Part shown: positions 6,395-45,145 of the stretch, in pieces | Numbering within the stretch: position 1 is the first letter of the stretch | How the letters are laid out: every line of letters begins with the position of its first letter | Source of the DNA: an uncultured Rhodospirillales bacterium | GTDB taxonomy: Bacteria > Pseudomonadota > Alphaproteobacteria > Rhodospirillales > UBA2165 | DNA length: 64,000 bases | Direction of reading: 5' to 3' | Assembly (NCBI GenBank): GCA_913055735.1 | Contig: CAJXKD010000001.1 | Location: 1,453,099-1,517,098 of the forward strand | Notes under the pieces: model-generated | The model's database searches: none | The model's input: the letters and a program-made list of their open reading frames with translations, nothing else | Told to the model about the DNA's origin: nothing | Position numbers and translations under genes: made by a program

Positions 6395-6688
6395 AAATGC
6401 AGTGCGCGGTTATTAACCAGCCGAAACAATCATTTGCCAATGGATCGCCATCGTCCGGAAGCAGACAAAACGCGCGTGGCATTTTGGAACCAGGGTGGAA
6501 AAAACAATACGAAATCCGCCGGGCTCAGTTGTTGCAATAACGCCACATCTTGGAAATTATGACACAGCAACGATACCAGTCCCCTTGACCGTTCGGGGGC
6601 TTAGTTGTCATATATTTACCACTTAAATTCTTCAGCCTGAATTCGGGCAGTCCTGCCCGTGGGATGAGGGATCGTTAGGAGGAGTAGC

Positions 6689-28163: not shown

Positions 28164-28238
28164 GCGGGCGTAGCTCAGGGGTAGAGCGCAACCTTGCCAA
28201 GGTTGAAGTCGTGAGTTCGAATCTCATCGCCCGCTCCA
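28164..28238 (+). tRNA. tRNA-Gly (anticodon GCC), CCA encoded
   Basis: Cloverleaf folded by hand: acceptor GCGGGCG/CGCCCGC, D stem GCTC/GAGC, anticodon stem CAACC/GGTTG with loop TTGCCAA, T arm GTGAG-TTCGAAT-CTCAT, and discriminator T plus CCA. Confidence 0.9.
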
Positions 28239-28313: not shown

Positions 28314-28901
28314 ATGAGCGACCAACTGGCACCGTTGAAACATTTCGTAACCGACATGAGCGCGGTGGTCGCGCGCGCGGGCACTGACGAGGCGATCATT
28401 CTCGAGGAGGGTGCAGCGCTTTTAGGCCAACTGGTCGGCCGGGACGCCGGGGAAAATTGGTTGCCGGAACCCTACGCGGGTGCGGCCGGGGACAGCTATG
28501 GCCAATACCTTCTTTATCGCGCGCCGGACGGCGGCTTTTCGGTGGTCAGTTTCGTCTGGGCGCCGGGGCAATCGACGCCGGTGCATGATCACACGGTGTG
28601 GGGATTGGTCGGGGTGTTGCGCGGCCAGGAACGGAACGTTCCCTATGAGCGCGCGGACGATGGCCGGCTGACGGCTGGTGCACCGGAAATTCTGTCGGCC
28701 GGTGAAGTGTGTGCGGTGTCGCCGACGATTGGTGATATTCACCAAGTATCCAATGCGCTGACAGACGAAACCTCGATCAGCATCCATGTCTACGGCGCGG
28801 ATATCGGCGAGGTGAAACGTCACACCTTTGATCCCAAAACGGGTGCCGCCACGACGTTTGTCTCGGGTTACAGCGACGCTCCCATACCAGATCTTTCCTA
28901 G
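28314..28901 (+). CDS. cysteine-dioxygenase-type-I-like cupin (thiol dioxygenase family; possibly a 3-mercaptopropionate dioxygenase type)
   Basis: 195 aa. The cupin metal triad pattern is TPVHDHTVWG...GDIHQVSN. Overall layout is CDO-like. Confidence 0.7.
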   Translation: MSDQLAPLKHFVTDMSAVVARAGTDEAIILEEGAALLGQLVGRDAGENWLPEPYAGAAGDSYGQYLLYRAPDGGFSVVSFVWAPGQSTPVHDHTVWGLVGVLRGQERNVPYERADDGRLTAGAPEILSAGEVCAVSPTIGDIHQVSNALTDETSISIHVYGADIGEVKRHTFDPKTGAATTFVSGYSDAPIPDLS

Positions 28902-28913
28902 GCCCGACCGTTC

Positions 28914-29777
28914 CTAAAGAGCGTTTACGGGCAGCTTCAGGTAAGAGACGCCGTTGTCTTCCGGCGGCGGCATCTGGCCGGCGCGCATATTCACCTGAAC
29001 CGACGGTAACAACAGGTTTGGCATGTCGAGCGTCTTGTCGCGCTCGGTGCGCATCTTGACGAACTCTTCCTCCGTCACGCCGTCATGGATGTGGATGTTC
29101 TTCGCCTTTTCCTCGGCAACGGTGGTTTCCCAGGCGTATTCGTCCCGCCCCGGTGCCTTGTAGTCGTGGCACAAGAACAACCGCGTGTCTTCCGGCAGGG
29201 CGAAGATTTTCTGGATGGACCGATACAGCGTTGCCGCGTCGCCGCCCGGAAAATCGGCACGCGCGGTGCCGTAATCGGGCATGAACAGCGTGTCGCCGAC
29301 GAACGCCGCGTTACCGACCACATAGGTGAGACAGGCCGGTGTGTGGCCGGGCGTATGGATGACGCGAGCTTCGAGGTCGCCGATGGAAAACGTCTCGCCA
29401 TCCCCGAACAGATGGTCGAATTGATCGCCGTTGGTATGGAAAGATTTCTCGGCGTTGAACACCTTGCCGAAGATTTCCTGCACATCGGCAATGTGCGCGC
29501 CGATGGCCGTTTTGCCACCGACCTTCTCTTTGAGATAGGGCGCTGCGCTCAGATGATCGGCATGGGCATGGGTCTCGAGGATCCAGTCGACGGTCAGCCC
29601 CTGATCTTTGACGAAGGTGATGATTTCATCGGCGGACGCGGTGGTCGTCCGGCCGGAATTCCGGTCGAAATCAAGCACGGAATCGATAATCGCGGCGCGT
29701 TTGCCTTTCGGGTCCCAAACCACATAGGAGACCGTATAGGTGGGTTCGTCGAAAAACGCTTTGACTTCGGGATTCAT
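28914..29777 (-). CDS. MBL-fold metallo-hydrolase, persulfide-dioxygenase (Blh/ETHE1-like) type
   Basis: 287 aa with ETHAHADHLSAA (HxHxDH), HTPGHTP and VGDTLFMPDYGTARADFPGG. It is divergent from a BigR/SqrR-like regulator. Confidence 0.8.
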   Translation of the reverse strand: MNPEVKAFFDEPTYTVSYVVWDPKGKRAAIIDSVLDFDRNSGRTTTASADEIITFVKDQGLTVDWILETHAHADHLSAAPYLKEKVGGKTAIGAHIADVQEIFGKVFNAEKSFHTNGDQFDHLFGDGETFSIGDLEARVIHTPGHTPACLTYVVGNAAFVGDTLFMPDYGTARADFPGGDAATLYRSIQKIFALPEDTRLFLCHDYKAPGRDEYAWETTVAEEKAKNIHIHDGVTEEEFVKMRTERDKTLDMPNLLLPSVQVNMRAGQMPPPEDNGVSYLKLPVNAL

Positions 29778-29831
29778 GCTTCACCTCTTGCTTTGCCTCA
29801 AACGGCGGCTGTTCGTGCGTTCTCTTTACAC

Positions 29832-29864
29832 TTGACATATATTCTAATTTGCATATATTTGCAA
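29832..29864. promoter_or_regulatory. face-to-face overlapping divergent promoters and probable operator (blh-like gene <-> arsR-ygaP-sulP)
   Basis: Plus strand: TTGACA(29832-37)-N16-TATATT(29854-59). Minus strand: TTGCAA(29864-59)-N17-TATATG(29841-36). CATATATT occurs twice, 16 bp apart. Confidence 0.4.
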
Positions 29865-29866
29865 GT

Positions 29867-30214
29867 ATGATTATTGATCGTATGGAGCGGACGGCCGATC
29901 AGATTAGCGACCTGATGAAAGTCCTTTCTAATCAGACGCGGCTCCTGATTTTGTGCCAATTGGTGGACGGTGAAAAGTCTGTCGGCGAATTGGCGCATCT
30001 TCTGAATGCCCGCGAACAGGCGGTATCGCAACAGTTGGCCTTGCTGCGCAAGGACGGCTTGGTGCGGGGCCGGCGGCAGGGACAGGTGGTGTTCTATTCC
30101 GTCGCCCGCGACGACGTCGCGCCTTTAATGAATTTTCTTCACGACACATATTGTATGGTGCCCCCACATTCCTTGCAGGCGCCTTCCCCAAAGGAGAATA
30201 AACATGTCCGATAA
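29867..30214 (+). CDS. ArsR/SmtB-family regulator, two-Cys BigR/SqrR-like (copy 1)
   Basis: ORF 29849 (TTG)..30214 trimmed to ATG 29867 (MIIDRMERT...). It has a wHTH (SVGELAHLLNAREQAVSQQLALLRKDGLV). Cys30 (LILC) and Cys96 (TYC) are 66 residues apart. Confidence 0.85.
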   Translation: MIIDRMERTADQISDLMKVLSNQTRLLILCQLVDGEKSVGELAHLLNAREQAVSQQLALLRKDGLVRGRRQGQVVFYSVARDDVAPLMNFLHDTYCMVPPHSLQAPSPKENKHVR

Positions 30215-30767
30215 GACAATGCAGGAGGTCACACCGGAAACCCTGAAAAGCTGGTTGGATGACGACAAGGCGGTGCTCATCGACATTCGCGAGCCTGACG
30301 AGTTTACGCGCGAACATATTCCCGGTGCGCGGCTGGTGCCTCTTTCCGGCTTCAATCCCGATGACTTTCCGCACGATCATGAAAAGGCCGGTGTTTTCTA
30401 TTGCCACATGGGCGACCGTACCGCGCGCAACGCCGCGCGCATCCTGGCGACCGGGTTTACCCAGGTCTATCAGCTGCAGGGCGGTGTACAGGCCTGGAAG
30501 CGGTCGGGTCTTCCTCTCAACGTAAACAAGAAGGCTCCATTGGCGATCATGCGTCAGGTTCAGATCACGGCGGGTTCGCTTGCCTTGCTTGGCGCTATTC
30601 TCGCCTGGTTCGTCTCGCCTTGGTTCATCATCCTCAGCGGCTTTGTCGGCGCCGGGTTGATTTTCGCGGGCGTTACCGGCGAATGTCCCATGGCGGCGAT
30701 GCTGCAACGGATGCCGTGGAACCAGAACGTGGGCGTAACAGATACGGCTCACGGCGCAACAGCTTAG
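30204..30767 (+). CDS. rhodanese-domain membrane protein (YgaP-like, rhodanese + DUF2892)
   Basis: Active-site loop is FYCHMGDRT. The C-terminal two-helix segment ends in GECPMAAML. RBS is AAGGAG. The start overlaps the arsR stop by 11 nt. Confidence 0.85.
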   Translation: MSDKTMQEVTPETLKSWLDDDKAVLIDIREPDEFTREHIPGARLVPLSGFNPDDFPHDHEKAGVFYCHMGDRTARNAARILATGFTQVYQLQGGVQAWKRSGLPLNVNKKAPLAIMRQVQITAGSLALLGAILAWFVSPWFIILSGFVGAGLIFAGVTGECPMAAMLQRMPWNQNVGVTDTAHGATA

Positions 30768-30789
30768 ATAGCGCGGCGGGGCGCCCATT

Positions 30790-32517
30790 ATGACGTTGCG
30801 GACGATGGGGCGGTTTCTGCCCATCGTGCAGTGGCTGCCCCGTTATCGACGTGCCGATTTGTCGGCCGATACGTTGGCTGGTTTGATCGTCGCCATCATG
30901 CTGGTCCCGCAGGGCATGGCCTATGCCTTGCTTGCCGGCATGCCCCCGGAAACCGGTCTCTATGCCAGCATCGTTCCCTTGATCCTTTATGGCTTGCTCG
31001 GCAGCAGCCGGGCGCTGGCCGTGGGGCCGGTCGCCATCGTTTCGTTGATGGTAGCAAGCGCCGTCGGCGGCCTTGCCGAGACGGGCAGCGACGCATATCT
31101 TGCCGCCGCGCTGCTCCTGGCATTGCTCAGCGGGGTGCTGCTCATTGCCATGGGTGCCGCGCGACTCGGTTTCCTGGTCAATTTCATCAGTCATCCCGTC
31201 ATCTCCGGCTTCATCAGCGCGGCGGCACTGGTCATTGCGCTCAGCCAACTGAAGTACCTGTTGGGGCTCGACATTCCGCGCAGCCACCTGATCACCGATA
31301 CGCTGGCCTTCGCCGTACGTCACGTGGGGGACATCAACTGGGTGACCGCGGCGATCAGCGTCGCGGCGATTGCGTTGCTCGTCTATTGGGGGCCGGTAAC
31401 AAATGCCGTGCTTGGACGGATGGGCATCGGCCAGACGACGTGTGTGGCGGTATCGCGGGCGAGCCCCCTCGCCGCCGTGCTGGTCTCGACCGTTGTCGTT
31501 TGGGCGTTCCGCTTCGATCTCAGCGTCGGTGTGCGTATTGTCGGGGACATTCCGGCCGGACTGCCGCCGTTGACCATGCCGCCTTTTGACAGCGCGTTGT
31601 GGCTGGATCTGTTGCCCGCGGCCGCGCTGATCACCATCGTCGGCTTTCTCGAAAGCGTGTCCATCGCCAAGGCGCTGGCCAGCAAGCGCCGTCAGAAGAT
31701 CGACGCCAATCAGGAACTGGTGGCTTTGGGTGTCGCCAATCTCGGGGCGGCGTTCACCGGCGCTTATCCGGTTGCTGGCGGCTTCGGCCGGTCCATGGTC
31801 AATTTCACCGCCGGTGCGGTGACGCCCATTGCGTCCATCGTTACCGCGATTCTGATCGCGCTCTCCATTCTCGTGTTCACGCCCCTGTTCTATTTCCTGC
31901 CGACGGCGGTTCTGTCGGCGGTGATCGTCGTCGCGGTGGCGCGTTTGGTCGATGTCGCGACGTTGCGGCACGCCTGGGTTTACAACAAAGCGGATGCGGC
32001 CTCCCTCATCGCGACCTTCTTTGCCGTTTTGTCGCTCGGGGTCGAAATTGGCATCGTTACCGGGATCGGCCTGTCCCTGGTGTTGTATCTCTATCGCACC
32101 AGTAAGCCGCATGTCGCCATCGTCGGCCGCGTTGGTTCAAGCGAGCATTTCCGCAATGTTCTGCGCCATCAAGTACGCACCTGCCCCCACGTGTTGGCCA
32201 TGCGTATCGACGAAAGCCTCTATTTCGCCAACACCAACTATCTTGAGGACTATCTCCTGGCGAAGGTGGCCGACGATCGGCGCATCAAGCACGTCGTGCT
32301 GATTTGCAGCGCCATCAATTTCATCGATACCAGTGCCCTCGAGTCCCTCTTCCGGGTGATCAGCGAGCTAAAGGATGCCGGCGTTACGTTGCACCTGGCC
32401 GAGGTGAAGGGCCCGGTGATGGACCGCCTCAAAAAGACCGAGCTGTTGGATCATCTCCTGCCGGGTAAGGTGTTCCTGAGCACCCATGAGGCGATGACCG
32501 ACCTCGATTGCGTCTAA
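30790..32517 (+). CDS. SulP-family anion permease with C-terminal STAS domain
   Basis: 575 aa with WLPRYRRADLSADTLAGLIVAIMLVPQGMAYALLAG (SulP signature) and a STAS tail (...LHLAEVKGPVMDRLKK...). Confidence 0.9.
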   Translation: MTLRTMGRFLPIVQWLPRYRRADLSADTLAGLIVAIMLVPQGMAYALLAGMPPETGLYASIVPLILYGLLGSSRALAVGPVAIVSLMVASAVGGLAETGSDAYLAAALLLALLSGVLLIAMGAARLGFLVNFISHPVISGFISAAALVIALSQLKYLLGLDIPRSHLITDTLAFAVRHVGDINWVTAAISVAAIALLVYWGPVTNAVLGRMGIGQTTCVAVSRASPLAAVLVSTVVVWAFRFDLSVGVRIVGDIPAGLPPLTMPPFDSALWLDLLPAAALITIVGFLESVSIAKALASKRRQKIDANQELVALGVANLGAAFTGAYPVAGGFGRSMVNFTAGAVTPIASIVTAILIALSILVFTPLFYFLPTAVLSAVIVVAVARLVDVATLRHAWVYNKADAASLIATFFAVLSLGVEIGIVTGIGLSLVLYLYRTSKPHVAIVGRVGSSEHFRNVLRHQVRTCPHVLAMRIDESLYFANTNYLEDYLLAKVADDRRIKHVVLICSAINFIDTSALESLFRVISELKDAGVTLHLAEVKGPVMDRLKKTELLDHLLPGKVFLSTHEAMTDLDCV

Positions 32518-32606: not shown

Positions 32607-33653
32607 ATGCTTGCCGACCGCATCGAAGGAAAATGGATCGATACCTTCGCTAAGGTATTCGAGCTTTGCAAAGTCGAAAAAGGCGAGGAAATCGCCATTT
32701 TATCGGAAACCCAATCCCGTCAATTGAATGTCCATCTGGCCGAACTCGCCCTATTGCGCCTGGGCGCACGGCCCTTCCATGTCATCGTGCCGACCCCGCC
32801 GCAAGCCGCGCCGGTGCCGGTGCGTTCCACCGGCGCGTCCGATGCGGTGCGTCAGTTGGGCCCGGTGGTGAAGGCTTTGGCCGCAAGTTCGATGGTTGTC
32901 GATCTTACGGTCGAGGGCATGCTGCATGCGCCCGAACTGCCCGCCATTATCGCCGATGATGCGCGGGTGCTGATGATTTCCAATGAACATCCCGAGGCAC
33001 TCGAACGTTTGCTGCCCGATCCCGCGTTGACCGAAAAGGTCAAAGCGGCGGTCAAGAAAATGCGCGGGGCCAAGCAGATGAAAGTCACGTCCACCGCGGG
33101 TACCGATCTCACCATCGGTATCGAGGGCGCGCCCAGCGCCGGGGTGTGGGGCTATTGCGACCGGCCCAAAACGGTGGCCCATTGGCCGGGCGGCATCGTC
33201 GTCGCTTTCCCGCCCGCCCACTCGGTCAACGGCACGCTGGTGCTCGATGCGGGTGACATCAACCTCACCTTCAAGCGCTACCTGCAGGACCCGGTGCGGC
33301 TGACCATCGAGGACGATTTCGTCACCGACATCGCAGGCGAGGGTACCGACGCCGAATTGTTCCGCCGCTATTGGGCGGCGTGGGGCGACAAAGAAGCCTA
33401 CGGCGTGTCGCATGTCGGCTGGGGCCTCAATCCGGCGGCCCGCTACGAAGCCATGGCCATGTACGATCAGCGCGATTTCAACGGTACCGAACTGCGTGCC
33501 TTTGCCGGCAATTTCCTCTATTCGACGGGCGCCAACGAGTTCGCCAAGCGTCACACGTTGGGCCATTTCGATCTGCCGGTGCGGGGGTGTACGGTTACCC
33601 TTGACGGCGAGGCGGTGGTGGAGAACGGCGATCTCGTCGACGGCAGCGAATGA
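32607..33653 (+). CDS. NicX-like (M29-fold) 2,5-dihydroxypyridine-type ring-cleavage dioxygenase
   Basis: ORF 32541..33653 trimmed to ATG 32607. The blocks GTLVLDAGDINLTFKRY, VSHVGWGLNP, FAGNFLYSTGAN and GHFDLPVRGC parallel the NicX His/Ser/His/Asp iron site, as recalled from P. putida NicX. Confidence 0.75.
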   Translation: MLADRIEGKWIDTFAKVFELCKVEKGEEIAILSETQSRQLNVHLAELALLRLGARPFHVIVPTPPQAAPVPVRSTGASDAVRQLGPVVKALAASSMVVDLTVEGMLHAPELPAIIADDARVLMISNEHPEALERLLPDPALTEKVKAAVKKMRGAKQMKVTSTAGTDLTIGIEGAPSAGVWGYCDRPKTVAHWPGGIVVAFPPAHSVNGTLVLDAGDINLTFKRYLQDPVRLTIEDDFVTDIAGEGTDAELFRRYWAAWGDKEAYGVSHVGWGLNPAARYEAMAMYDQRDFNGTELRAFAGNFLYSTGANEFAKRHTLGHFDLPVRGCTVTLDGEAVVENGDLVDGSE

Positions 33654-34426
33654 GTTTTCCCATCACATATATCGAGGCCGGCAGCGGCCCGGCAGTGATT
33701 TTCCTGCATGGCATCGGCGGCGACGCGGAGGCTTTCTCAAAGCAGGTGGATTACTTCGCCCGCGAACATCGGGCCATTGCCTGGAACATGCCCGGCTATC
33801 GCGGCTCCGACCTGCTCGATCCCATGACTTTCCCCGGGCTTGCGAAGGCGCTGCTGTCGCTGATGGATCATCTCGGCATCGACAAGGCCCATGTGGTCGG
33901 CCATTCCATCGGCGGCATGATCGCCCTCGAGTTCGCCGCGACCTATCCCGACCGGGTGCTCAGCGTCGTGCTTGCGCAGACCAGCCCCGCCTTCGGCCGC
34001 CCCGACGGCGACTTCCAGAAACAGTTCATTGCCGACCGGCTCGGGCCCCTCGACGCGGGCCAGACCATGGCCGAGATCGCCGACGAGGTGATCGCCACTT
34101 TTTTCGGCCCCAACGCGGCGCCCGCCGATATCGAAGTGGCGCGCAAGGCGATGGCCGCGGTGCCGGAGGCAACCTATCGCGCGGCCATGCATTGCCTGGT
34201 CGCCTTTGATCGGCGTGATGCCTTGTCGAACCTATCGGTGCCCACGCTCGTGCTCGCCGGCGAAAAGGACAGCAACGCCCCCGCGCCGATGATGGAGCGC
34301 ATGGCGGGCAAGATCCCCGGCGCCGAATACGCCTGCATGGCTGGGGCCGGCCATCTCGCCAATCTTGAATGTCCCGAGGCGTTCAACGACGCCATCGGCA
34401 GTTTCATAAACAAACTCAAAAACTGA
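33650..34426 (+). CDS. alpha/beta-fold hydrolase (NicD-like deformylase candidate)
   Basis: 258 aa with VIFLHGIGG, nucleophile elbow GHSIGG, and C-terminal AGHLANLE. An ATGA start/stop overlap joins it to the upstream gene. Confidence 0.8.
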   Translation: MSFPITYIEAGSGPAVIFLHGIGGDAEAFSKQVDYFAREHRAIAWNMPGYRGSDLLDPMTFPGLAKALLSLMDHLGIDKAHVVGHSIGGMIALEFAATYPDRVLSVVLAQTSPAFGRPDGDFQKQFIADRLGPLDAGQTMAEIADEVIATFFGPNAAPADIEVARKAMAAVPEATYRAAMHCLVAFDRRDALSNLSVPTLVLAGEKDSNAPAPMMERMAGKIPGAEYACMAGAGHLANLECPEAFNDAIGSFINKLKN

Positions 34427-34445: not shown

Positions 34446-35702
34446 ATGGCGCGCGCATCCCTTCCCGTCGATCCCCCCATGTACGACCCGAAGTCGTTCG
34501 GCCTGACCAAGAAACAGGCCCAACTGACGGCCAAGGCCCGCAAGCTGGGCGCCGAGAAATTCGCGCCGCGTGCCGACAAGTGGGATCGTGAAGCCATCTT
34601 TCCCATGGAGAACTACAAGGATCTGCACAAAGCAGGCTTTCTCGGCATTTGTGTGCCGGAGAAGCATGGCGGTATCGGCGCGGATTACATGACCTATGCG
34701 CTGACGGCGGCGGAAATCGGCCGCTATTGCGGCACCACCTCGCTTACTTGGAACATGCACGTCAGTTCGTGTTTGTGGACCGGCGATCTCGCCGACGATC
34801 TCAAGATGACGGCGGCGCAACGCAAATCACACAACCGCCGCCGCGCCATTCACTACAAGCGCATCGTCGAGGACGGGGCCATTTACGCGCAGCCCTTTTC
34901 CGAAGGCGGTGCCGCGGCGGCCGGCGCCGCGCCGTTCGGCACCACGGCGACAAAGACCAAAGGCGGCTGGCTGATCAACGGCAAGAAGATTTTCGCTTCC
35001 CTCGCCGGGTCGGCGGACTATTACGGCGTGTTGTGCACGGAGAAGAAACCCAACCTGTCGCGCCGCGACACCATGTATGTGGCGGTGCCCGGCGATGCGG
35101 AGGGCGTGTCGGTCGTCGGCGATTGGGATCCGCTGGGTATGCGCGGCACCGTGTCGCGTAACCTGCTGTTTGACAATGTGTTCGTTCCCGATGATGCGGC
35201 GCTGATGCCCAAGGGCGTTTATTTCCTCGCCGCCACCCGCTGGCCGCACATGTTCCTCACGCTGACACCCACCTATATGGGTATCGCTCAGGCGGCCTAT
35301 GATTTCACGGTGAAGTATCTGCGCGGCGAAGCGCCGAACACGCCGCCCGTAAAACGTCGCATGTATCCGACCAAGCAGCACGCGATCGCCGAGATGCACA
35401 TGAAGCTGGAGCAGACCAAGGCGATTTGGTTCCAGGCCATCCGCGAGGCTGGCCCCAACCCGACCAAGGAACAGATATTGCGTGCCTACACGGCGCAATA
35501 TTCGGCGATGGAGAATGCCAACGAGCTTTGCCGCCTGGCCATCCGCACCTGCGGTGGGCAGTCGATGCTCAAGAGCCTGCCGCTGGAGCGTCTTTACCGC
35601 GATAGCCGTTGCGGTTCACTGATGTTGCCGTGGACTGCGGAAATCTGCGTCGACCGGCTGGGCCGCGAGGCGCTCTACAATCCGGGCGAAAGCGACGAAT
35701 GA
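34446..35702 (+). CDS. acyl-CoA-dehydrogenase-fold flavoprotein, non-canonical (MCAD-type catalytic Glu not evident)
   Basis: 418 aa with the ACAD N/M/C domain pattern (FLGICVPEKHGGIG..., ...GGQSMLKSLPLERLYRD...). The position of the usual YEGT motif reads LMLPWT. Confidence 0.8.
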   Translation: MARASLPVDPPMYDPKSFGLTKKQAQLTAKARKLGAEKFAPRADKWDREAIFPMENYKDLHKAGFLGICVPEKHGGIGADYMTYALTAAEIGRYCGTTSLTWNMHVSSCLWTGDLADDLKMTAAQRKSHNRRRAIHYKRIVEDGAIYAQPFSEGGAAAAGAAPFGTTATKTKGGWLINGKKIFASLAGSADYYGVLCTEKKPNLSRRDTMYVAVPGDAEGVSVVGDWDPLGMRGTVSRNLLFDNVFVPDDAALMPKGVYFLAATRWPHMFLTLTPTYMGIAQAAYDFTVKYLRGEAPNTPPVKRRMYPTKQHAIAEMHMKLEQTKAIWFQAIREAGPNPTKEQILRAYTAQYSAMENANELCRLAIRTCGGQSMLKSLPLERLYRDSRCGSLMLPWTAEICVDRLGREALYNPGESDE

Positions 35703-37234
35703 CCGATATCTCGCACTGGCTGAAAACGCATGCGGCCTTCGATCCGGAAAAGGTCGCACTGCGTCATGCCGGCGGCGAGGAAACCTACGCGCAGTTTGCT
35801 GATCAGGTTCGATGTCATGCGGCCATGCTGCAGCACGGGCTCGGCATCGGGCGCGGCGATCGTATTGCCTATCTCGGCCCAAATACCGCCGACTTCCTGT
35901 TTCTGTTTTTCGCCGCTGCACGCCTCGGCGCGATGTTTCTACCGCTCAATTGGCGCCTGGCACCGGGGGAACATGCCTATATCATCGCCGATGCGTCACC
36001 CAAGGCGGTGTTCTGCGATGCCAGTTTCATCGAGCATACGGACACTTTTCGGGGCCGGTATCCGACGATCGCCTTTGTCGATTGCAACGGCGGGACCGAC
36101 GGATGGAACTCTTTACGCGGCCTGCTCGATGACACGTCTGGCCAGGACGTGCCCCGATTGGGCGATCTCGCCGATCCCCTGTTGCTGGTCTATACATCAG
36201 GCACTACAGGACGCCCCAAAGGCGCGGTCCTCACCCAAAATGCGGTGCAGGTCAACGCGCTCAATAGCCTCCATATGCACGATCTGCGCAGCGACGACCG
36301 CATCCTCACGATGATCCCGTTGTTTCATGTGGGCGGACTTAATATTCACACGACACCCGCCTTCTATGCCGGCGCAACGGTGACCTTGCATGAACGGTTC
36401 GATCCCGGGATGGCGCTCAAGACTATCGAAGAAGAAAAAATTACCCTCACCGTTATGGTGCCGGCCGTCATTCAGGCGGCGATGAAACACCCAAAATGGG
36501 ACGCGGCCAATCTGTCGTCGTTGCGGATGCTGACCACCGGCTCGTCAATCGTGCCCTTGCCGCTGATCCAGGCGTTCCATGACCTTGGTGTTCCCGTGGT
36601 ACAGGTCTATGGCGCGACGGAAACAGCGCCCGTGGCGATATACCAGCGGGCCGCGGATGGGTTCCGCAAGCCCAGTTCGACCGGGAAGGCAGCGCTTCAC
36701 TGCGACGTACGGGTCGTAGACGACAACGGCCACGATGTGGCGCCCGGCGTATCGGGCGAGATCTGGGTGCGGGGCGGCAATATCCTGCGCGAATACTGGA
36801 ATAATCCCGACGCGACGGCGGCAGCCTTGACCGATGGTTGGTTCCATACCGGTGACGTCGGTTATCTGGATGAGGAAGGCGACTATTTCATCAATGACCG
36901 CAAGAAAGACGTGATTATCTCGGGCGGTGAAAACATTTATCCAGCCGAGGTGGAAGCGGTGCTACACGAAATGACGGAAATTGCCGATGCGGCGGTTGTC
37001 GGCCGAGCCGATGACCGGTGGGGAGAAGTACCAATTGCTGTCGTCGAAGCAAAGGAAGGTGCGCAGATCGACGTGGCCGCGATCCTCGGGCGTTTCGATG
37101 GTGTGCTGGCGCGCTTCAAGCATCCCAAGGACATCATCGTCGTAGACGCACTGCCGCGGAATGCCATGGGCAAGGTGCTGAAATACGAAGTGCGGGGCCT
37201 GGCGGTGAAAAGCCCGGATTACGCTGGGCAATAG
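35699..37234 (+). CDS. AMP-forming acyl-CoA ligase (ANL superfamily)
   Basis: ORF 35609..37234 trimmed to ATG 35699 (ATGA overlap with the ACAD stop). Motifs LLVYTSGTTGRPKG, YGATE, GWFHTGD and ISGGENIYPAEVE are present. Confidence 0.9.
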   Translation: MTDISHWLKTHAAFDPEKVALRHAGGEETYAQFADQVRCHAAMLQHGLGIGRGDRIAYLGPNTADFLFLFFAAARLGAMFLPLNWRLAPGEHAYIIADASPKAVFCDASFIEHTDTFRGRYPTIAFVDCNGGTDGWNSLRGLLDDTSGQDVPRLGDLADPLLLVYTSGTTGRPKGAVLTQNAVQVNALNSLHMHDLRSDDRILTMIPLFHVGGLNIHTTPAFYAGATVTLHERFDPGMALKTIEEEKITLTVMVPAVIQAAMKHPKWDAANLSSLRMLTTGSSIVPLPLIQAFHDLGVPVVQVYGATETAPVAIYQRAADGFRKPSSTGKAALHCDVRVVDDNGHDVAPGVSGEIWVRGGNILREYWNNPDATAAALTDGWFHTGDVGYLDEEGDYFINDRKKDVIISGGENIYPAEVEAVLHEMTEIADAAVVGRADDRWGEVPIAVVEAKEGAQIDVAAILGRFDGVLARFKHPKDIIVVDALPRNAMGKVLKYEVRGLAVKSPDYAGQ

Positions 37235-37515
37235 TTCTTGTGCAGAAAGCGTAAGAGCTTGGAGATCTTCTTTTTGGCCAGCGAATAATAAATGGTCTGC
37301 CCGTCGCGGCGGGTTTTGACCAAACCGTCCTTGCGCAGCAGAGCGAGCTGCTGGGACATGGCCTGTTCGCGAACGTCGAGCAACTTGGCCAATTCGCCGA
37401 CGGAAGATTCCCCTTCGACAAGCCGGCATAGGATCAACAGCCGATTGCGGTTGGACAGAACCTTCATAAGGTCCGAAACCTCCTCAGCGGATTTTTGCAT
37501 GTCTTTTAGGTTCAT
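37219..37515 (-). CDS. ArsR/SmtB-family regulator, two-Cys BigR/SqrR-like (copy 2)
   Basis: ORF 37219..37551 starts at a TTG. I trimmed it to ATG 37515 (MNLKDMQKS...), which aligns residue-for-residue with copy 1, including Cys30 (LILC) and Cys96 (NYC). Confidence 0.8.
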   Translation of the reverse strand: MNLKDMQKSAEEVSDLMKVLSNRNRLLILCRLVEGESSVGELAKLLDVREQAMSQQLALLRKDGLVKTRRDGQTIYYSLAKKKISKLLRFLHKNYCPA

Positions 37516-37601
37516 ATTTGCGAACCTATGATGATATCTATTTTCCGTCAAGCCGGATTGGTTGCGAAGCTCAGATTTTCAGGCCTCCGTTGAAAAAATC
37601 C

Positions 37602-37619
37602 CATTGATGCGCATCAATG
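37602..37619. promoter_or_regulatory. perfect 18-bp palindrome CATTGATGCGCATCAATG in the divergent intergenic region (operator candidate)
   Basis: Verified by hand as its own reverse complement. It lies between arsR copy 2 and the dehydrogenase/OFOR operon. Confidence 0.45.
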
Positions 37620-37686
37620 CGGTTAAAAGTCATTGTCCGCAAAATCGAGCCAAATTGCAGACTGCGGTCTGGGAGGACAGTGCGCC

Positions 37687-38844
37687 ATGGATGCTTCGAT
37701 GTATAAACCGGAGACGTCCGCCGCCGATATTAAGTCGCTCTTCGGTTTCGGCGACGGGCTTGGCCCCAACAAAGTGATCCACGTTCATGAAGACTCCATC
37801 GGCCTCGATGGGGTGCTGGTCGTCGACAATGTGGCGGCCGGCCCGTCTATCGGCGGTCTGCGCATGGCCCCCGACGTGACCACCGAGGAATGCTATCGCC
37901 TCGCGCGGGCGATGACCCTCAAGAACGCAGCGGCCGGGCTGCCGCACGGCGGCGGCAAGTCGGTGATTAAGGCGGACCCCCGTATGCCGGCGACCAAGAA
38001 GGAAACGCTGGTACGCGCCTTCGCCTGCGCTCTGCGCGGGGTCGAGGACTATATCTTCGGCCCTGATATGGGTACCAACGAACTTTGCATGGGCTGGGTG
38101 CGTGACGAGATCGGCCGGTCAGTCGGTCTGCCGCGTGCGGTCGGCGGTATTCCCTTGGACGACCTCGGAGCGACCGGCTGGGGCCTGCATCACGCGGTTA
38201 AGACGGCATTGGATTTCGTCGATATGAAGCTCGACGGCGCACGGGTCGTTGTTCAGGGGTTCGGTGCGGTGGGCTATCACGCGGCCCGTTTCCTCAAGGG
38301 TGACGGCGCCAAGCTAATCGCGGCTTCCGATTCCCAAGGCGGGATCCGAAACGATGAGGGTCTTGATGTTGCCGCCCTTCACGCCTTCAAACAAACCGGG
38401 AAGAGCGTCGCCGAATTCGACGGCGGCACACCGCTCGATCGTGACGATCTCATCGCTGTGCCTTGCGATATTTGGGTGCCGGCGGCGCGGCCCGACGTCA
38501 TTACTGCCGACAACGTGGACCGGTTGGAAGCGCGCTTGGTTGCGCAAGGGGCCAATATTCCGGTGACGCTGGAGGCGGAGAGGCGTTTGCACGAACGCAA
38601 TATTCTTAGCCTCCCCGATTTTATTGCCAATGCGGGCGGCGTGATCTGTGCCGCGATGGAATGGCACGAAGCGAGCGAATCGGCGGCGTTCCAGGCGATC
38701 GAAGACAAGATTACGCTCAATGTTCGCGAGGTGCTGGAGCGCGCGACGACGTCCGGCGAGTTGCCCCGAGACGCGGCGGTGACCATGGCTCAGGATCGCG
38801 TGCGGGCCGCGATGAATACCCGGCGTTGGAGAACGTTCTACTAA
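37687..38844 (+). CDS. Glu/Leu/Phe/Val-family amino-acid dehydrogenase
   Basis: ORF 37633..38844 trimmed to ATG 37687 behind GGGAGG. Motifs are GPSIGGLRM, LPHGGGKSVI (catalytic Lys region) and NAD fold VQGFGAVG. Confidence 0.85.
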   Translation: MDASMYKPETSAADIKSLFGFGDGLGPNKVIHVHEDSIGLDGVLVVDNVAAGPSIGGLRMAPDVTTEECYRLARAMTLKNAAAGLPHGGGKSVIKADPRMPATKKETLVRAFACALRGVEDYIFGPDMGTNELCMGWVRDEIGRSVGLPRAVGGIPLDDLGATGWGLHHAVKTALDFVDMKLDGARVVVQGFGAVGYHAARFLKGDGAKLIAASDSQGGIRNDEGLDVAALHAFKQTGKSVAEFDGGTPLDRDDLIAVPCDIWVPAARPDVITADNVDRLEARLVAQGANIPVTLEAERRLHERNILSLPDFIANAGGVICAAMEWHEASESAAFQAIEDKITLNVREVLERATTSGELPRDAAVTMAQDRVRAAMNTRRWRTFY

Positions 38845-38866
38845 ATCGCTTGGGAAGGAGGCATAG

Positions 38867-39799
38867 ATGTACCGGATCCGCTTTCATGGCCGTGGCGGCC
38901 AGGGAATGAAAACGGCGAGCCGCGTGCTCGGATCGGCCTTCTTTCACGAGGGCTTCGAAGTCCAGGATGCCCCGCGCTACGGCGCCGAGCGCCGGGGCGC
39001 GCCGATGAACGCCTATGTTCGCGCCGACCGGGCGCCGATTTACGAGCGCGGCATCATTCTGCGACCTGATCTTGTGATTGTTGCCGACGATACCTTGGTG
39101 CCGATCCCTGCCGCGGGCGTTTTGCAAGGGTTGGATAACCGGAGCGTTTTGTTGATCGACAGCGCCACACCGGAAGACGAATGGCGCAAACGCACCAACA
39201 TCGGTGGTCCCATACTCGTGCTGCCGTTGCCTGACACGGTCGATCGTTCCTCTCTGGCGATGATCGGAATTGCCTGTGCGGGGGCCGCCGCGCGTCTGAT
39301 CGGGGTAATTTCCGAAGACGCCCTCGAGCAAGCGGTGCGCGATGAGCTGGCGCCCTTGGGCGAGGCGGTCGTGGAGAAAAACATCCAAGCGGCCATGGCT
39401 GGTTATGCCGCCATGTCTGACCACGCAGGAACGGTTTCCGAGGGCGTTCCCGCTGCGGCCAGTGGCGCCGGTTCGCCGGACTGGGTGGACGTGCCGGTCG
39501 AAGAAGTGCGGCTTTCCGGTCCGGCTATTCATGCCGGGGCAACGTCGGTGGAGGTGCGCACAGGCCTATGGCGTACATTTCGGCCGGTGATCCATTACGA
39601 TCGCTGCAACCACTGCAACTGGGTTTGCAGCTCTTTCTGTCCGGATAACGCCATATCCGTTGCCGAAGATGGCCGCCCGGTGATCGATTATGATCACTGC
39701 AAGGGGTGCATGATCTGCGTCGTCCAATGTCCGCCGCATGCCATCGAGTCGGTTCTCGAGGTCGAGGCGGCAGCCGCGGAACGAAGGGGGTCGGCATGA
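38867..39799 (+). CDS. 2-oxoacid:ferredoxin oxidoreductase, fused gamma + delta (2x[4Fe-4S]) subunit
   Basis: The N-terminus IRFHGRGGQGMKTASRVLG is a gamma signature. The C-terminus carries CNHCNWVCSSFCP and CKGCMICVVQCP ferredoxin motifs. Confidence 0.85.
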   Translation: MYRIRFHGRGGQGMKTASRVLGSAFFHEGFEVQDAPRYGAERRGAPMNAYVRADRAPIYERGIILRPDLVIVADDTLVPIPAAGVLQGLDNRSVLLIDSATPEDEWRKRTNIGGPILVLPLPDTVDRSSLAMIGIACAGAAARLIGVISEDALEQAVRDELAPLGEAVVEKNIQAAMAGYAAMSDHAGTVSEGVPAAASGAGSPDWVDVPVEEVRLSGPAIHAGATSVEVRTGLWRTFRPVIHYDRCNHCNWVCSSFCPDNAISVAEDGRPVIDYDHCKGCMICVVQCPPHAIESVLEVEAAAAERRGSA

Positions 39800-41040
39800 C
39801 CCGCGCGCTGATCACCGGCAATGCCGCTGCCGCTTGGGGCGGGCGGTTGGCGCGTATGGATTACGTGCCGGCTTTCCCCATTACCCCGCAAACCGAAATC
39901 ATCGAAACCATCGCGAAATGGACCGAGCGTGGCGACATCGCCACACGCATGGTGATGTACGAATCCGAACACAGCATGATCACCGGGGCCGGTGCCGCGG
40001 CCGCCACCGGGGTTAGGGTATTTACCGCCACCTCCAGCCAGGGTCTGCTTTATGGGATGGAGATGCTCTACACCGTCGCGGGCTGGCGTGCCCCGTTTGT
40101 GCTGGTCAACGTTTCGCGTGGCTTGGCCTCGCCCATCACGCTTGAGCCCGATCACAACGACATCATGGCGGCGCGTGATAGCGGGTTCCTGCAAATCCAT
40201 TGCGCGACGTGTCAGGAGGTCGTCGACAGTGTGTTGATGGCCTACCGTCTTGGCGAGGATCATCGGGTACGCTTGCCTGTGATCGTCAACCTAGACGGTT
40301 TTTATCTGTCTTTCACCCGCGAGGCCGTGGACCTGCCGTCGGCCGACGCGGCGGCGGAATTCCTGCCCGCCTTCGATCCGCAAGGCACCGAATTTCGCGC
40401 CGGAAAGCCGGTGAGCCAGGCAGTCGCGGTCTTGGGAGGCGGCACCTATTCCTATTTCCGCTACGAACAGCATCTGGCCGCGCAGGCCGCACTTCCCGTT
40501 TATGACGAGGTTGCCGCCGAGTTCAACGACCGCTTCGGCCGTTTGCATCCGGCGATCGAGTCCTATCGGGCCGAAGATGCTGAGATGGTGTTCGTTATGA
40601 TGGGATCCTTTGCGACAAAGGCCAAGGACGCGGTGGACCGGCTGCGCGAGGCGGGTATCGCGGCGGGCCTTCTGCGCCCGCGTTTGTTCCGGCCGTTCCC
40701 GCGAGATGCGTTCCGGTCCGCCTTGGTGGGCAAGAAAGGCGTTGCGGTGATCGATCAGAACCTGTCCATGGGCATGGGGGGTGTGCTGCATTCGGAATTG
40801 GCGTCGGCACTTTACGGCGCCCCGGATGCCCCCCGCGCCTTGACCAGTTTCGTCGGCGGCCTGGGCGGACGCGATATCGCGCCGGCCGAATTCTATGAAA
40901 TGGCGCACGCGACCCTGCGGGCCGCTGAAACCGGCGAAACGCCGCCGCCACGCCTTATGTATACCCACAGCGAATTGCGCGAGATGCGCAAATTGCAGGC
41001 GGCCGCCCATGTGGAACGCCATGAACAGGATATTGCGTGA
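39796..41040 (+). CDS. 2-oxoacid:ferredoxin oxidoreductase, alpha subunit
   Basis: ORF 39706..41040 trimmed to ATG 39796 (ATGA overlap). MTRALITGNAAAAWGGRLARMDYVPAFPITPQTEI is typical of PorA/VorA. Confidence 0.85.
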   Translation: MTRALITGNAAAAWGGRLARMDYVPAFPITPQTEIIETIAKWTERGDIATRMVMYESEHSMITGAGAAAATGVRVFTATSSQGLLYGMEMLYTVAGWRAPFVLVNVSRGLASPITLEPDHNDIMAARDSGFLQIHCATCQEVVDSVLMAYRLGEDHRVRLPVIVNLDGFYLSFTREAVDLPSADAAAEFLPAFDPQGTEFRAGKPVSQAVAVLGGGTYSYFRYEQHLAAQAALPVYDEVAAEFNDRFGRLHPAIESYRAEDAEMVFVMMGSFATKAKDAVDRLREAGIAAGLLRPRLFRPFPRDAFRSALVGKKGVAVIDQNLSMGMGGVLHSELASALYGAPDAPRALTSFVGGLGGRDIAPAEFYEMAHATLRAAETGETPPPRLMYTHSELREMRKLQAAAHVERHEQDIA

Positions 41041-43698: not shown

Positions 43699-43739
43699 GC
43701 AAATATATACTTGCGAAGGTATGAAGGTAAGAATATATT
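43699..43739 (+). promoter_or_regulatory. candidate sqr promoter (TTGCGA-N17-TATATT) overlapped by near-palindrome GCAAATATATACTTGC
   Basis: -35 at 43711-16 and -10 at 43734-39. The 16-bp element at 43699-43714 is 14/16 self-complementary. Further ATATATT cores occur at 43733-39 and 43784-90. Confidence 0.35.
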
Positions 43740-43855: not shown

Positions 43856-45145
43856 ATGTCTCACATCGTCATTCTAGGGGCCGGTCTGGGTGGTATCCCC
43901 ATGGCCTATGAAATGCGCGCGCAACTCGGCAAGGAAGATCGTCTGACGGTCATTTCCGACCGTGACCATTTTCAGTTCACACCGTCCAATCCGTGGCTCG
44001 CCGTCAATTGGCGGAAACCCGACCAAATAACAGTCAAGCTCGAGCCTATTTTCAAAAAACGCAAAATAGGATTCCATTCGGTCGGTGCCAAAAGGGTCGT
44101 GCCTGAGAAAAACCAAGTTGAGCTCAACGATGGCCAAGTTGTCGATTACGACTATCTCGTGATCGCAACAGGGCCCGAACTCGCCTTCGACGAGATCGAC
44201 GGGTTGGGACCGCATACCGGCTTCACCCAATCGATCTGTACGGTTGAACATGCCACGACGGCATCGGAGGCCTGGGAAAAGTTCGTCAAAAATCCGGGGC
44301 CCATCATCATCGGTGCGGTGCAGGGGGCGTCCTGCTTCGGCCCTGCTTACGAGTTTGCGTTCATCGTCGATACGGAGTTGCGCCGCCGCAAGCTGCGTGA
44401 CCAGGTGCCCATTACTTATGTAACTCCGGAGCCCTACATCGGACATTTGGGCTTGGACGGGGTCGGCGATACCAAGTCGATGTTGGAATCCGAATTCCGC
44501 CAGCGCCACATCAAATGGATCACCAACGCCAGCGTCGAAAAGGTCGCCGATGGCACCATGACCGTGGTTGAACACAACGCAGATGGCGAAGAAAAAGAAC
44601 GTCACGACCTGCCCTTCGGTTACAGCATGATGCTGCCGGCGTTCCGCGGCATTCCGGCTGTGTTCGGTATTGAGGGGCTGACCAATCCGCGCGGTTTCAT
44701 CACCATCGACGAGTTCCAGCGGAACCAAAAGTATCAGAACGTGTACTCGGTGGGTGTCTGCGTCGCCATCGCGCCGCCGGAGGCGACCCCTGTCGCCACT
44801 GGCGTTCCCAAGACCGGGTTTATGATCGAAAGCATGGTGACGGCCGCCGTGCATAACATTCGCCAGGCAATGGATGGTAAGGATCCAACGCATAAAGCCA
44901 CCTGGAATGCCCTTTGCCTCGCCGATTTCGGCGACACGGGCGTGGCCTTCCTCGCCATGCCTCAAATTCCGCCACGCAACGTCAGCTGGGCGTCCGAAGG
45001 CAAATGGGTCCATCTCGCCAAGATCGCGTTCGAGAAATACTTTTTGCGCAAGGTGCGGACGGGTAACGTCGATCCCATCGTCGAGAAGTACGTACTCAAG
45101 CTGCTCGGCATTGATAAACTCAAGACACCGGCGCCCGGCGAGTAA
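43856..45145 (+). CDS. sqr: sulfide:quinone oxidoreductase (type-I-like SQR)
   Basis: 429 aa. FAD fold is IVILGAGLGG. Three Cys sit in SQR-like contexts (QSICTVEH, GASCFGPAYE, NALCLADFGD). RBS is AAGGAG. Confidence 0.85.
   Translation: MSHIVILGAGLGGIPMAYEMRAQLGKEDRLTVISDRDHFQFTPSNPWLAVNWRKPDQITVKLEPIFKKRKIGFHSVGAKRVVPEKNQVELNDGQVVDYDYLVIATGPELAFDEIDGLGPHTGFTQSICTVEHATTASEAWEKFVKNPGPIIIGAVQGASCFGPAYEFAFIVDTELRRRKLRDQVPITYVTPEPYIGHLGLDGVGDTKSMLESEFRQRHIKWITNASVEKVADGTMTVVEHNADGEEKERHDLPFGYSMMLPAFRGIPAVFGIEGLTNPRGFITIDEFQRNQKYQNVYSVGVCVAIAPPEATPVATGVPKTGFMIESMVTAAVHNIRQAMDGKDPTHKATWNALCLADFGDTGVAFLAMPQIPPRNVSWASEGKWVHLAKIAFEKYFLRKVRTGNVDPIVEKYVLKLLGIDKLKTPAPGE

Follow-up and report, generated by a model that had tools for sequence, protein, structure and literature searches.

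A probable sulfide/persulfide detoxification module with a two-Cys ArsR repressor and a SulP permease, located beside a gene for a 3-mercaptopropionate dioxygenase-type cupin

Here, we describe a group of five genes at positions 28314-32517 of a 64,000-nt stretch of contig CAJXKD010000001.1 from an uncultured Rhodospirillales bacterium; this whole stretch is referred to as the window. For a housekeeping-type protein encoded nearby, the nearest relatives with a name are Rhodospirillales/Rhodospirillaceae metagenome-assembled genomes, with 56-60% identity. Genes were read from the six-frame list of open reading frames (ORFs), domains were called with Pfam and NCBIfam profiles, and solved relatives were taken from matches among the PDB sequences. 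The first gene encodes a cupin of the thiol dioxygenase type (28314..28901, + strand, 195 aa). It converges with pdo (28914..29777, - strand, 287 aa), the gene for a putative persulfide dioxygenase (PDO), and 12 nt lie between the two stop codons (28902-28913, GCCCGACCGTTC). Divergent from pdo, arsR1 (29867..30214, + strand) codes for a repressor of the ArsR type and overlaps by 11 nt (30204-30214) with the gene for a membrane rhodanese (30204..30767, + strand, 187 aa), which is followed after a gap of 22 nt (30768-30789) by sulP (30790..32517, + strand, 575 aa), encoding a SulP/SLC26 permease. Since each of the five ORFs has strong homologues, we consider them real genes and not chance ORFs. 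Identical proteins in the same order are encoded on an independent metagenome contig (L001) for all five of them.

The product of pdo belongs to the metallo-beta-lactamase (MBL) fold (Pfam Lactamase_B). Its best PDB match is the P. putida enzyme (4YSK/4YSL, 6e-120), followed at a large distance by ETHE1 (4CHL, 2e-21) and by the CstB-like proteins 3TP9 and 3R2U (4e-8 and 4e-6, respectively). SdoA, Blh and PpPDO-like enzymes are grouped as type II, ETHE1 as type I and CstB as type III (PMC5702731). With the Blh model NF040641, its alignment is confined to model positions 141-423 (420 bits versus a cutoff of 625), and the DUF442 domain, the mark of a bifunctional Blh, has no match anywhere in the window. 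Because 4YSK is by far the best match, only the C-terminal PDO part of the Blh model is covered, and the enzymes of this kind are placed in type II, we assign the MBL protein to the stand-alone type II PDOs.

The membrane rhodanese is assigned to the YgaP type, with a single rhodanese domain and two C-terminal transmembrane helices (Pfam Rhodanese, 71 bits; YgaP-like_TM, 33 bits). Both parts find their counterpart in E. coli YgaP, the transmembrane domain in 2MPN (5e-20) and the rhodanese domain in 2MOI/5HBL (3e-17). The putative catalytic residue, Cys67, is located in a CHMGDRT loop and aligns with the catalytic Cys of E. coli in FHCQAGKRT.

ArsR1 (HTH_5/ArsR) has three candidate start codons, at 29849, 29867 and 29882; translation from the ATG at 29867 would give a protein of 115 aa, and translation from 29882 one of 110 aa. 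The ATG at 29867 is in frame and yields the N-terminus MIIDRM..., whose pattern M-x-x-x-x-M is common to the homologues of the Roseobacter group and to ArsR2, a paralogue encoded further downstream (37219..37515, - strand, 98 aa). ArsR2, which was recognised by tblastn and by pairwise alignment with ArsR1, is 65% identical to it. Among the PDB sequences, the closest relatives of ArsR1 are HlyU (7e-20), SqrR (1e-18), BigR (1e-17) and YgaV (4e-12), with both Cys residues aligned. The only Cys residues of ArsR1 are C30 and C96, numbered along the 115-aa form; the same pair is present in ArsR2, and in both proteins it aligns with the sensing Cys pairs of SqrR, BigR and HlyU. We therefore class ArsR1 and ArsR2, judged by their sequences, as members of the BigR/SqrR/YgaV family; by their scores with the BigR equivalog model, given below, they are not strict BigR orthologues. 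The sequence-only reading had already proposed a persulfide-response locus with the five genes in exactly the orientations, overlap and gaps given above, and had left open the type of the MBL enzyme; the regulator, the type II PDO and the YgaP-type rhodanese bear this proposal out.

The promoter of arsR1 (29832..29859, + strand) was located by a promoter scan and is of the sigma-70 type, consisting of TTGACA, a 16-nt spacer and TATATT (11/12 matches). A palindrome, ATATTTGCAAGTAT (29855..29868, an inverted repeat and thus unstranded), covers the -10 box, the predicted transcription start and the arsR1 ATG, and also lies upstream of the divergent pdo gene, at a distance of 84 nt from its start codon. 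Both elements recur elsewhere. The -35 element is kept in the same register at arsR2 and in loci of five other organisms (L082, L083, L086, L091 and L139), whose arsR promoters also keep the motif ATAyTTGC(GC)AAGTATGAA. The shared plan of these arsR promoters is TTGAC, approximately 20 nt, and then ATAyTTGC(GC)AAGTATGAA. This suggests the palindrome as a predicted operator that overlaps the promoter of its own operon. Such an arrangement is in good agreement with BigR, which is reported to bind to the -10 region of its operon, one that carries a TauE-related exporter (PMC5823870), and with YgaV, which represses its own ygaVP operon and is released by sulfide via Cys31/Cys98 (PMC9774250). Between the -10 box of arsR1 and the ATG at 29867 there are 7 nt, which leaves no room for a Shine-Dalgarno sequence; the arsR1 transcript, with its predicted start at or beside this ATG, is thus probably leaderless. 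A leaderless-type geometry like that of 29854-29869 is also seen at arsR2 and at the homologues in L082, L083, L086 and L091.

A search of the window with the 16-mer palindrome returned four matches, compared to 0.45 expected, and three distinct sites precede arsR1, arsR2 and a gene for sulfide:quinone oxidoreductase (SQR). The operator-like site of arsR2, ATATTTGCGAACCTAT (37514..37529, unstranded), lies at the start codon of this gene, and its -35 element, CTTGAC, keeps the conserved register. The third site, ATACTTGCGAAGGTAT (43707..43722, unstranded), shows two mismatches to the 16-mer palindrome and lies 134 nt upstream of sqr (43856..45145, + strand, 429 aa). The flank of this palindrome (GTATGAAGGTAAGAATAT) is similar to the 5' end of arsR genes. 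The product of sqr is assigned to the type I SQRs and matches the A. ferrooxidans structures 3SZ0/3T31 (1e-147) and the Aquifex structure 3HYV (5e-106); it probably supplies the sulfane sulfur that is sensed by the repressors. With copies of the predicted operator at arsR1, arsR2 and sqr, the regulon is probably dispersed over these three sites. The sequence-only reading did not include ArsR2, sqr or their operator copies. The two 65%-identical repressors with similar operators recall the paired sHdrR/SoxR repressors described of Hyphomicrobium.

Several further genes lie around arsR2 and sqr. arsR2 is convergent with an acyl-CoA ligase gene, the two 3' ends overlapping, and divergent from a gene of the Glu/Leu/Phe/Val-dehydrogenase family. 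Between arsR2 and the cluster that comprises this dehydrogenase and a 2-oxoacid:ferredoxin oxidoreductase (37633-41975), a perfect palindrome with 8-bp arms, CATTGATGCGCATCAATG, is found at 37602-37619. It is unlike the arsR motif and may be the operator of another regulator. A second CoA ligase gene (41959-43680) comes after the oxidoreductase cluster. The sqr gene itself is located 11 kb beyond sulP, and next to it follows an HlyD/AcrB pump of the RND (resistance-nodulation-division) type (45164-49350).

The permease consists of a Sulfate_transp domain (363 bits) and a C-terminal STAS domain (71 bits) according to Pfam, and reaches 476.7 bits with TIGR00815 (cutoff 380.45). Its closest homologues, with 64-68% identity, come from bacteria of the Roseobacter group. 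In two of these, Aestuariibius (L082) and Cognatiyoonia (L083), we find the same module, pdo (287 aa, - strand) divergent from arsR-ygaP-sulP (+ strand), beside genes for flavocytochrome c sulfide dehydrogenase (FCSD) or sox genes. Identities to the window proteins amount to 70-73% for PDO, 50-55% for ArsR, 56-60% for YgaP and 67% for SulP. Remoter SulP homologues on Paracoccus and Chelativorans plasmids are located among DUF442-SQR fusions, MBL-fold proteins, rhodaneses and YeeE genes.

Gene neighbourhoods were compared in two censuses, each restricted to the best 80 loci for its anchor. The first scanned metagenomes with the window PDO (L086-L165, PDO identity 63-75%), and the second scanned one genome per GTDB species with a family alignment of 3-mercaptopropionate dioxygenases (3MDOs; L002-L081). 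The neighbours recorded in the 80 PDO-anchored loci are ArsR (37), DUF6691/YeeE (28), SulP (24), DUF442-SQR fusions (23), TauE (21), peroxiredoxins (18) and YgaP (6), which makes SulP the most frequent transporter beside close relatives of the window PDO. The DUF442-SQR fusions are about 560 aa long, and the peroxiredoxins beside PDO are of the 1-Cys type. SulP and TauE never occur together in these loci, against about six joint occurrences expected by chance (hypergeometric P = 1.3e-4). When the count is limited to the 38 loci that extend 3 kb or more to each side, P for this exclusion is 4e-6. In the locus with the closest PDO relative (L086, 75% identity), arsR is divergent from pdo-YeeE-DUF6691-TauE, and YeeE-DUF6691-TauE stand where the window has YgaP and SulP. 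Clusters of the pdo-sqr-sulP kind are known from Methylophaga thiooxydans (PMC6548844). Since SulP never co-occurs with TauE beside PDO, these data support placing SulP in the exporter slot of the module, which is held by TauE/SafE in the bigR operon of Xylella and Agrobacterium. The sequence-only reading had put SulP in this very position and had also called it an unusual partner; the first part holds up well, and the second is at odds with 24 of 80 loci, with L082 and L083, and with Methylophaga.

Implementing these observations, we regard it as likely that the core at 28.9-32.5 kb is a detoxification module for sulfide and persulfide, i.e., reactive sulfur species (RSS), under a two-Cys ArsR of the BigR/SqrR/YgaV type, and that the cupin gene and the genes downstream of sulP are separate from it. 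In the proposed course of events, the type I SQR would oxidise H2S to sulfane sulfur, in the form of polysulfide or glutathione persulfide (GSSH). Sulfane sulfur would then cross-link Cys30 and Cys96 in ArsR1 and in its paralogue ArsR2, and the cross-linked repressor would leave the operator ATATTTGCAAGTAT, which reaches from the -10 box across the transcription start into the start codon of arsR1. The resulting de-repression would concern the divergent transcripts pdo and arsR1-ygaP-sulP, also arsR2, and probably sqr. The type II PDO would convert GSSH to sulfite. YgaP may move sulfane sulfur at the membrane, e.g., by joining it to sulfite to give thiosulfate. Finally, SulP would export the oxyanion product, sulfite or thiosulfate, in the slot that TauE/SafE takes in the bigR operon of Xylella and Agrobacterium.

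Several points weigh against this picture. ArsR1 and ArsR2 reach only 79.7 and 98 bits with the BigR equivalog model NF040642 (cutoff 155), and the generic ArsR/SmtB model NF033788 is their best NCBIfam match above cutoff (82 and 85 bits versus 55). The SqrR/YgaV box ATTC-N8-GAAT is absent from these promoters; it matches the window only at 6627 and 59108, which is chance level, and control boxes of this SqrR type were discarded because none lies near the module genes. A promoter scan of the same region gave the arsR1 promoter, and the pdo promoter was not identified. The sqr-side palindrome lacks the -35 element that is found at the arsR promoters. Looser operator patterns match the window no more often than expected by chance, so that the operator argument draws on the positions of the sites and on their conservation across species. 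As to the limits of the module, the 89-nt spacer between sulP and the following gene, a homologue of nicX, shows no sign of a terminator (fold z-score -0.08), and read-through into the NicX-like gene is therefore possible. The pathway of the thiol dioxygenase would, like the PDO reaction, end in sulfite, which makes a functional link possible, and the closest 3MDO homologue of the cupin is only 58-63% identical, so that the stability of the adjacency within the lineage lies beyond the reach of such a comparison. Characterised SulP proteins, moreover, are mostly importers or exchangers.

The last point leads to an alternative view of the permease, in which SulP acts as an importer or exchanger of sulfate, thiosulfate or bicarbonate, and its linkage to pdo reflects the supply of a substrate or counter-ion instead of sulfite removal. 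SulP members include BicA, which imports bicarbonate, and DauA, which transports dicarboxylates, and both match the window protein at the family level; annotators name these SulP proteins 'sulfate permease', and a gene for a putative carbonic-anhydrase-like protein (Pro_CA_2) comes after pdo in the loci of the Roseobacter group. The scores with the curated models are far below the cutoffs, however, with 108 versus 880 bits for BicA and 208 versus 614 bits for DauA. A sulfide-induced detoxification operon has no evident need for sulfate uptake. The mutual exclusion of SulP and TauE, together with the YeeE-DUF6691-TauE genes that replace YgaP-SulP in L086, is hard to align with an importer. We thus consider this view unlikely and assume that SulP, as part of the detoxification module, exports sulfite and/or thiosulfate.

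The cupin deserves a closer look, since the sequence-only reading had presented it as a CDO-like thiol dioxygenase, CDO standing for cysteine dioxygenase, and had pointed to the Gln/Arg residue that separates the two substrate classes. Its CDO_I domain scores 27.1 bits (cutoff 23). The best PDB matches are bacterial CDO homologues of the Gln type, namely the Ralstonia protein 4QMA (1e-50), the 3MDO of Azotobacter vinelandii (6XB9, 3e-49) and that of Pseudomonas aeruginosa, Pa3MDO (3USS/4TLF, 1e-47), whereas mercaptosuccinate dioxygenase (2e-11) and mammalian CDO (~1e-5) are clearly weaker. In an alignment of 22 homologues, Q64, H91, H93, G97, H143, S156, H158, Y160 and R169 are all invariant. 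The equivalents in Pa3MDO are Q62 for Q64, H89/H91/H142 for H91/H93/H143, G95 for G97, S155-H157-Y159 for S156-H158-Y160, and R168 for R169. The three-His iron site of the cupin fold (H91, H93, H143) is complete, and so are the SHY motif and the relocated carboxylate-binding Arg (R169). The diagnostic Gln is Q64 (YGQYLL), and its counterpart in Pa3MDO is the second Q in YQQYLL (residue 62, counted from H89/H91). The Cys of the Cys-Tyr cross-link is absent: G97 in VWGLVG corresponds to G95 of Pa3MDO, a position that is marked by the G95C variant 4WVZ. In true CDOs, the substrate carboxylate is bound by an Arg (Arg60 in rat) at the position of Gln62 in P. aeruginosa and Gln63 in A. vinelandii; this Gln sets the Gln-type thiol dioxygenases apart, and Arg168 binds the carboxylate of 3-mercaptopropionate (3MP) (PMC8050391). 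The cupin is accordingly classed as a Gln-type thiol dioxygenase of the 3MDO family and not as a true CDO, with a predicted preference for 3MP.

Is this dioxygenase linked to the module? The sequence-only reading had described it as attached, a view that finds no backing in the data. The dioxygenase gene is not co-transcribed with pdo, because the two genes converge. A second copy of the arsR1-type operator ahead of the dioxygenase gene was considered and discarded, as no site is found upstream at up to three mismatches. None of the 80 3MDO-anchored loci carries a PDO, a BigR-like ArsR or a YgaP within 10 kb of the 3MDO homologue, and no 3MDO lies near PDO in the 80 PDO-anchored metagenome loci, so that the pairing amounts to 0/160 for both anchors together. 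Our literature search returned no paper that treats 3MDO together with PDO. In the two Roseobacter-group loci, the Pro_CA_2 gene (PF20393) after pdo, on the same strand (L082, 4586-5050, - strand; L083, 4577-5062, - strand), occupies the slot of the convergent thiol dioxygenase of the window. A tRNA-Gly(GCC) gene (28164..28238, + strand, found by ARAGORN) lies 75 nt upstream of the dioxygenase gene. An integrated island at this tRNA was considered and rejected: no repeat of the tRNA 3' end is found elsewhere in the window, and neither GC nor GC3 of the dioxygenase and the module deviates. Most likely, the dioxygenase gene came to lie beside the module in this lineage only, an arrangement that gives no evidence of coupling in regulation or metabolism.

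Downstream of sulP, four genes follow on the same strand. The first of them (32607..33653, + strand) codes for a NicX-like ring-cleavage dioxygenase, i.e., a homologue of the 2,5-dihydroxypyridine 5,6-dioxygenase NicX (PDB 7CN3, E 5.5e-60), within a 370-aa ORF whose likely start is M23 at 32607; no Pfam or NCBIfam model matches this protein. It is followed by an alpha/beta-fold hydrolase (33650..34426, + strand; Pfam Abhydrolase_1), a flavoprotein of the acyl-CoA dehydrogenase (ACAD) fold (34446..35702, + strand), and an acyl-CoA ligase (35699..37234, + strand; AMP-binding domains), whose first 4 nt (35699-35702) are also the last of the ACAD gene and which reaches no NCBIfam equivalog cutoff. 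Orthologues of the first three genes stand together as a conserved triad on plasmids of Ensifer and Aminobacter (L166, 7004-10682; L167, 7040-10717), with identities of 52-53% for the NicX-like protein, 49-50% for ACAD and 32% for the hydrolase. The triad is accompanied there by genes for a flavin reductase, a protein of the glutamine-synthetase family and an APC permease, and no sulfur genes are found near it on these plasmids. The acyl-CoA ligase lies outside the conserved triad. The NicX-like orthologues are annotated as 'peptidase M29'. We assign the NicX-like gene, the hydrolase and ACAD, on the grounds of this synteny, to a catabolic cassette separate from the sulfur module; it looks like an uncharacterised cassette for an N-heterocycle or an aromatic amine.

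This assignment bears on a more integrated view, in which 3MDO, the RSS module, ACAD and ligase form a single pathway from 3-mercaptopropionate via 3-sulfinopropionate and its CoA ester to sulfite, with a shared SulP and common control by the persulfide sensor. The sequence-only reading had pointed to a similar logic by analogy to the 3,3'-dithiodipropionate (DTDP) pathway of Advenella. A number of facts fit: the cupin holds every signature residue of the 3MDOs, the window encodes an acyl-CoA ligase as well as a protein of the ACAD fold, both the 3MDO pathway and the PDO reaction end in sulfite, and the genes from sulP to the ligase share a strand, with no gap between them exceeding 89 nt and no evident terminator behind sulP. 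In the 3MDO-anchored loci, a class III CoA-transferase just upstream (12/80), a four-domain rhodanese just downstream (7/80) and an enoyl-CoA hydratase (4/80) are recurrent neighbours, and 3MDO homologues are thus linked to CoA-activating enzymes and rhodaneses elsewhere. The pairing with the CoA-transferase presumably corresponds to the 'Act' step of 3-sulfinopropionate activation in Variovorax. In the window, however, tblastn finds no match to a class III CoA-transferase or an enoyl-CoA hydratase, and for a multi-domain rhodanese only a weak match to the rhodanese domain of YgaP itself. ACAD as a 3-sulfinopropanoyl-CoA desulfinase was rejected, since it scores 108.5 bits with the desulfinase model NF042439 (cutoff 600) and its synteny, with a 49-50% identical orthologue, is that of the NicX-like/ACAD/hydrolase triad without sulfur genes. 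The homologue of 2,5-dihydroxypyridine dioxygenase sits between sulP and ACAD. Adding the convergent orientation of the dioxygenase gene towards pdo, the lack of an operator upstream of it and the missing 3MDO/PDO pairing in the 160 loci, we give this integrated pathway little credence. The analogy to Advenella is rejected for the genes downstream of sulP.

A narrower connection would be that a dioxygenase of the 3MDO type was recruited into the RSS response, where it would oxidise a thiol of low molecular weight, or a thiol/persulfide pool that increases during sulfide stress, to a sulfinate, with the sulfur leaving as sulfite via SulP, and/or that read-through places the NicX-like cassette under sulfide control. 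We consider this very doubtful. If true, it would represent a second, thiol-dioxygenase branch of persulfide detoxification. The adjacency of the dioxygenase matters only if the gene is co-regulated; it would then link the oxidation of organic thiols to persulfide sensing.

That the ArsR proteins are sensors of metals, organometals or general redox state, and that the module serves another stress, is a reading to which the scores with NF033788 and NF040642 and the tributyltin by which ygaVP was first found de-repressed (PMC9774250) may lend some colour, but which we regard as highly improbable, given that, among solved structures, HlyU, SqrR and BigR come closest and not the metal sensors CzrA, SmtB or NmtR, that the two putative RSS-sensing Cys are the sole Cys of the protein, that the genes presumably regulated are those for PDO, rhodanese and an anion permease, that operator-like sites lie ahead of the second repressor and of SQR, and that the context across the 80 PDO loci is uniformly one of sulfide oxidation.

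From a biological point of view, the locus is a further example of the widespread toolkit for heterotrophic sulfide oxidation, which consists of SQR, type II PDO, a rhodanese, an anion exporter and a two-Cys ArsR. The most useful outcomes of the analysis are the exclusivity of SulP and TauE, the conserved operator that is not of the SqrR kind, and the dispersed regulon with two repressors and SQR. The exclusion makes SulP a testable candidate exporter of sulfite or thiosulfate, an activity for which we know of no demonstrated case in the SulP family. The conserved operator ATAyTTGC(GC)AAGTAT, being unlike the published SqrR box, allows the prediction of regulons in the Roseobacter group and in related Alphaproteobacteria.

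How do these features compare to known systems? The cupin resembles the 3MDOs of P. aeruginosa and A. vinelandii in aligning with them from end to end, in the three-His site, the SHY motif, the Gln and the Arg, and in the Gly at the position of the cross-link Cys. It differs from them in being at most 63% identical to known homologues and in its partners, with neither CoA-transferase nor multi-domain rhodanese beside it. With the 3MP pathway of Advenella mimigardefordensis and Variovorax paradoxus, the window shares the 3MDO-type dioxygenase as well as an ACAD-fold protein and a CoA ligase within 8 kb; here, however, ACAD is predicted not to be a desulfinase and is part of the NicX-like cassette, and the linkage is not conserved.

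In Methylophaga thiooxydans, the mto clusters (mtoX ... pdo-sqrB-sulP) likewise encode PDO, SQR and a SulP 'sulfate/sulfite permease', and all three are expressed during the oxidation of dimethyl sulfide (DMS) and methanethiol (PMC6548844). These clusters belong to a gammaproteobacterium and are linked to methanethiol oxidase, and no ArsR/YgaP pair is described for them.

A further parallel is the ygaVP operon of E. coli, in which, as in the window, a two-Cys ArsR repressor is followed by a YgaP-type rhodanese with two C-terminal transmembrane helices; in the window, the two genes overlap. C31 and C98 of YgaV nearly coincide with C30 and C96 of ArsR1, and yet YgaV is a weaker match to ArsR1 (4e-12) than HlyU, SqrR and BigR. 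The operon of the window runs on into sulP and is divergent from pdo, and its predicted operator is ATAyTTGC(GC)AAGTAT, in contrast to ATTC-N8-GAAT in E. coli. The bigR operon of Xylella and Agrobacterium agrees with the window in its two-Cys repressor, an operator over the -10 box (a predicted one in our case), a type II PDO domain, a sulfurtransferase and a membrane anion exporter (PMC5823870). It differs in that the window PDO does not have the DUF442 domain found in Blh, a YgaP-type rhodanese with a gene of its own stands for the sulfurtransferase, SulP takes the place of TauE, and pdo is divergent from the regulator instead of being part of its operon; in addition, both window ArsR proteins remain below the BigR equivalog cutoff.

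The same module is found in the uncharacterised loci of the Roseobacter group, represented by Aestuariibius sp. 2305UL40-4 and Cognatiyoonia sp. IB215182. These differ from the window in the Pro_CA_2 gene after pdo, in the sox or FCSD genes beside the module and in having no NicX-like cassette. They share with it the same four genes in the same order and orientation, a PDO of 287 aa, the overlap of arsR and ygaP, and a conserved promoter and predicted operator.

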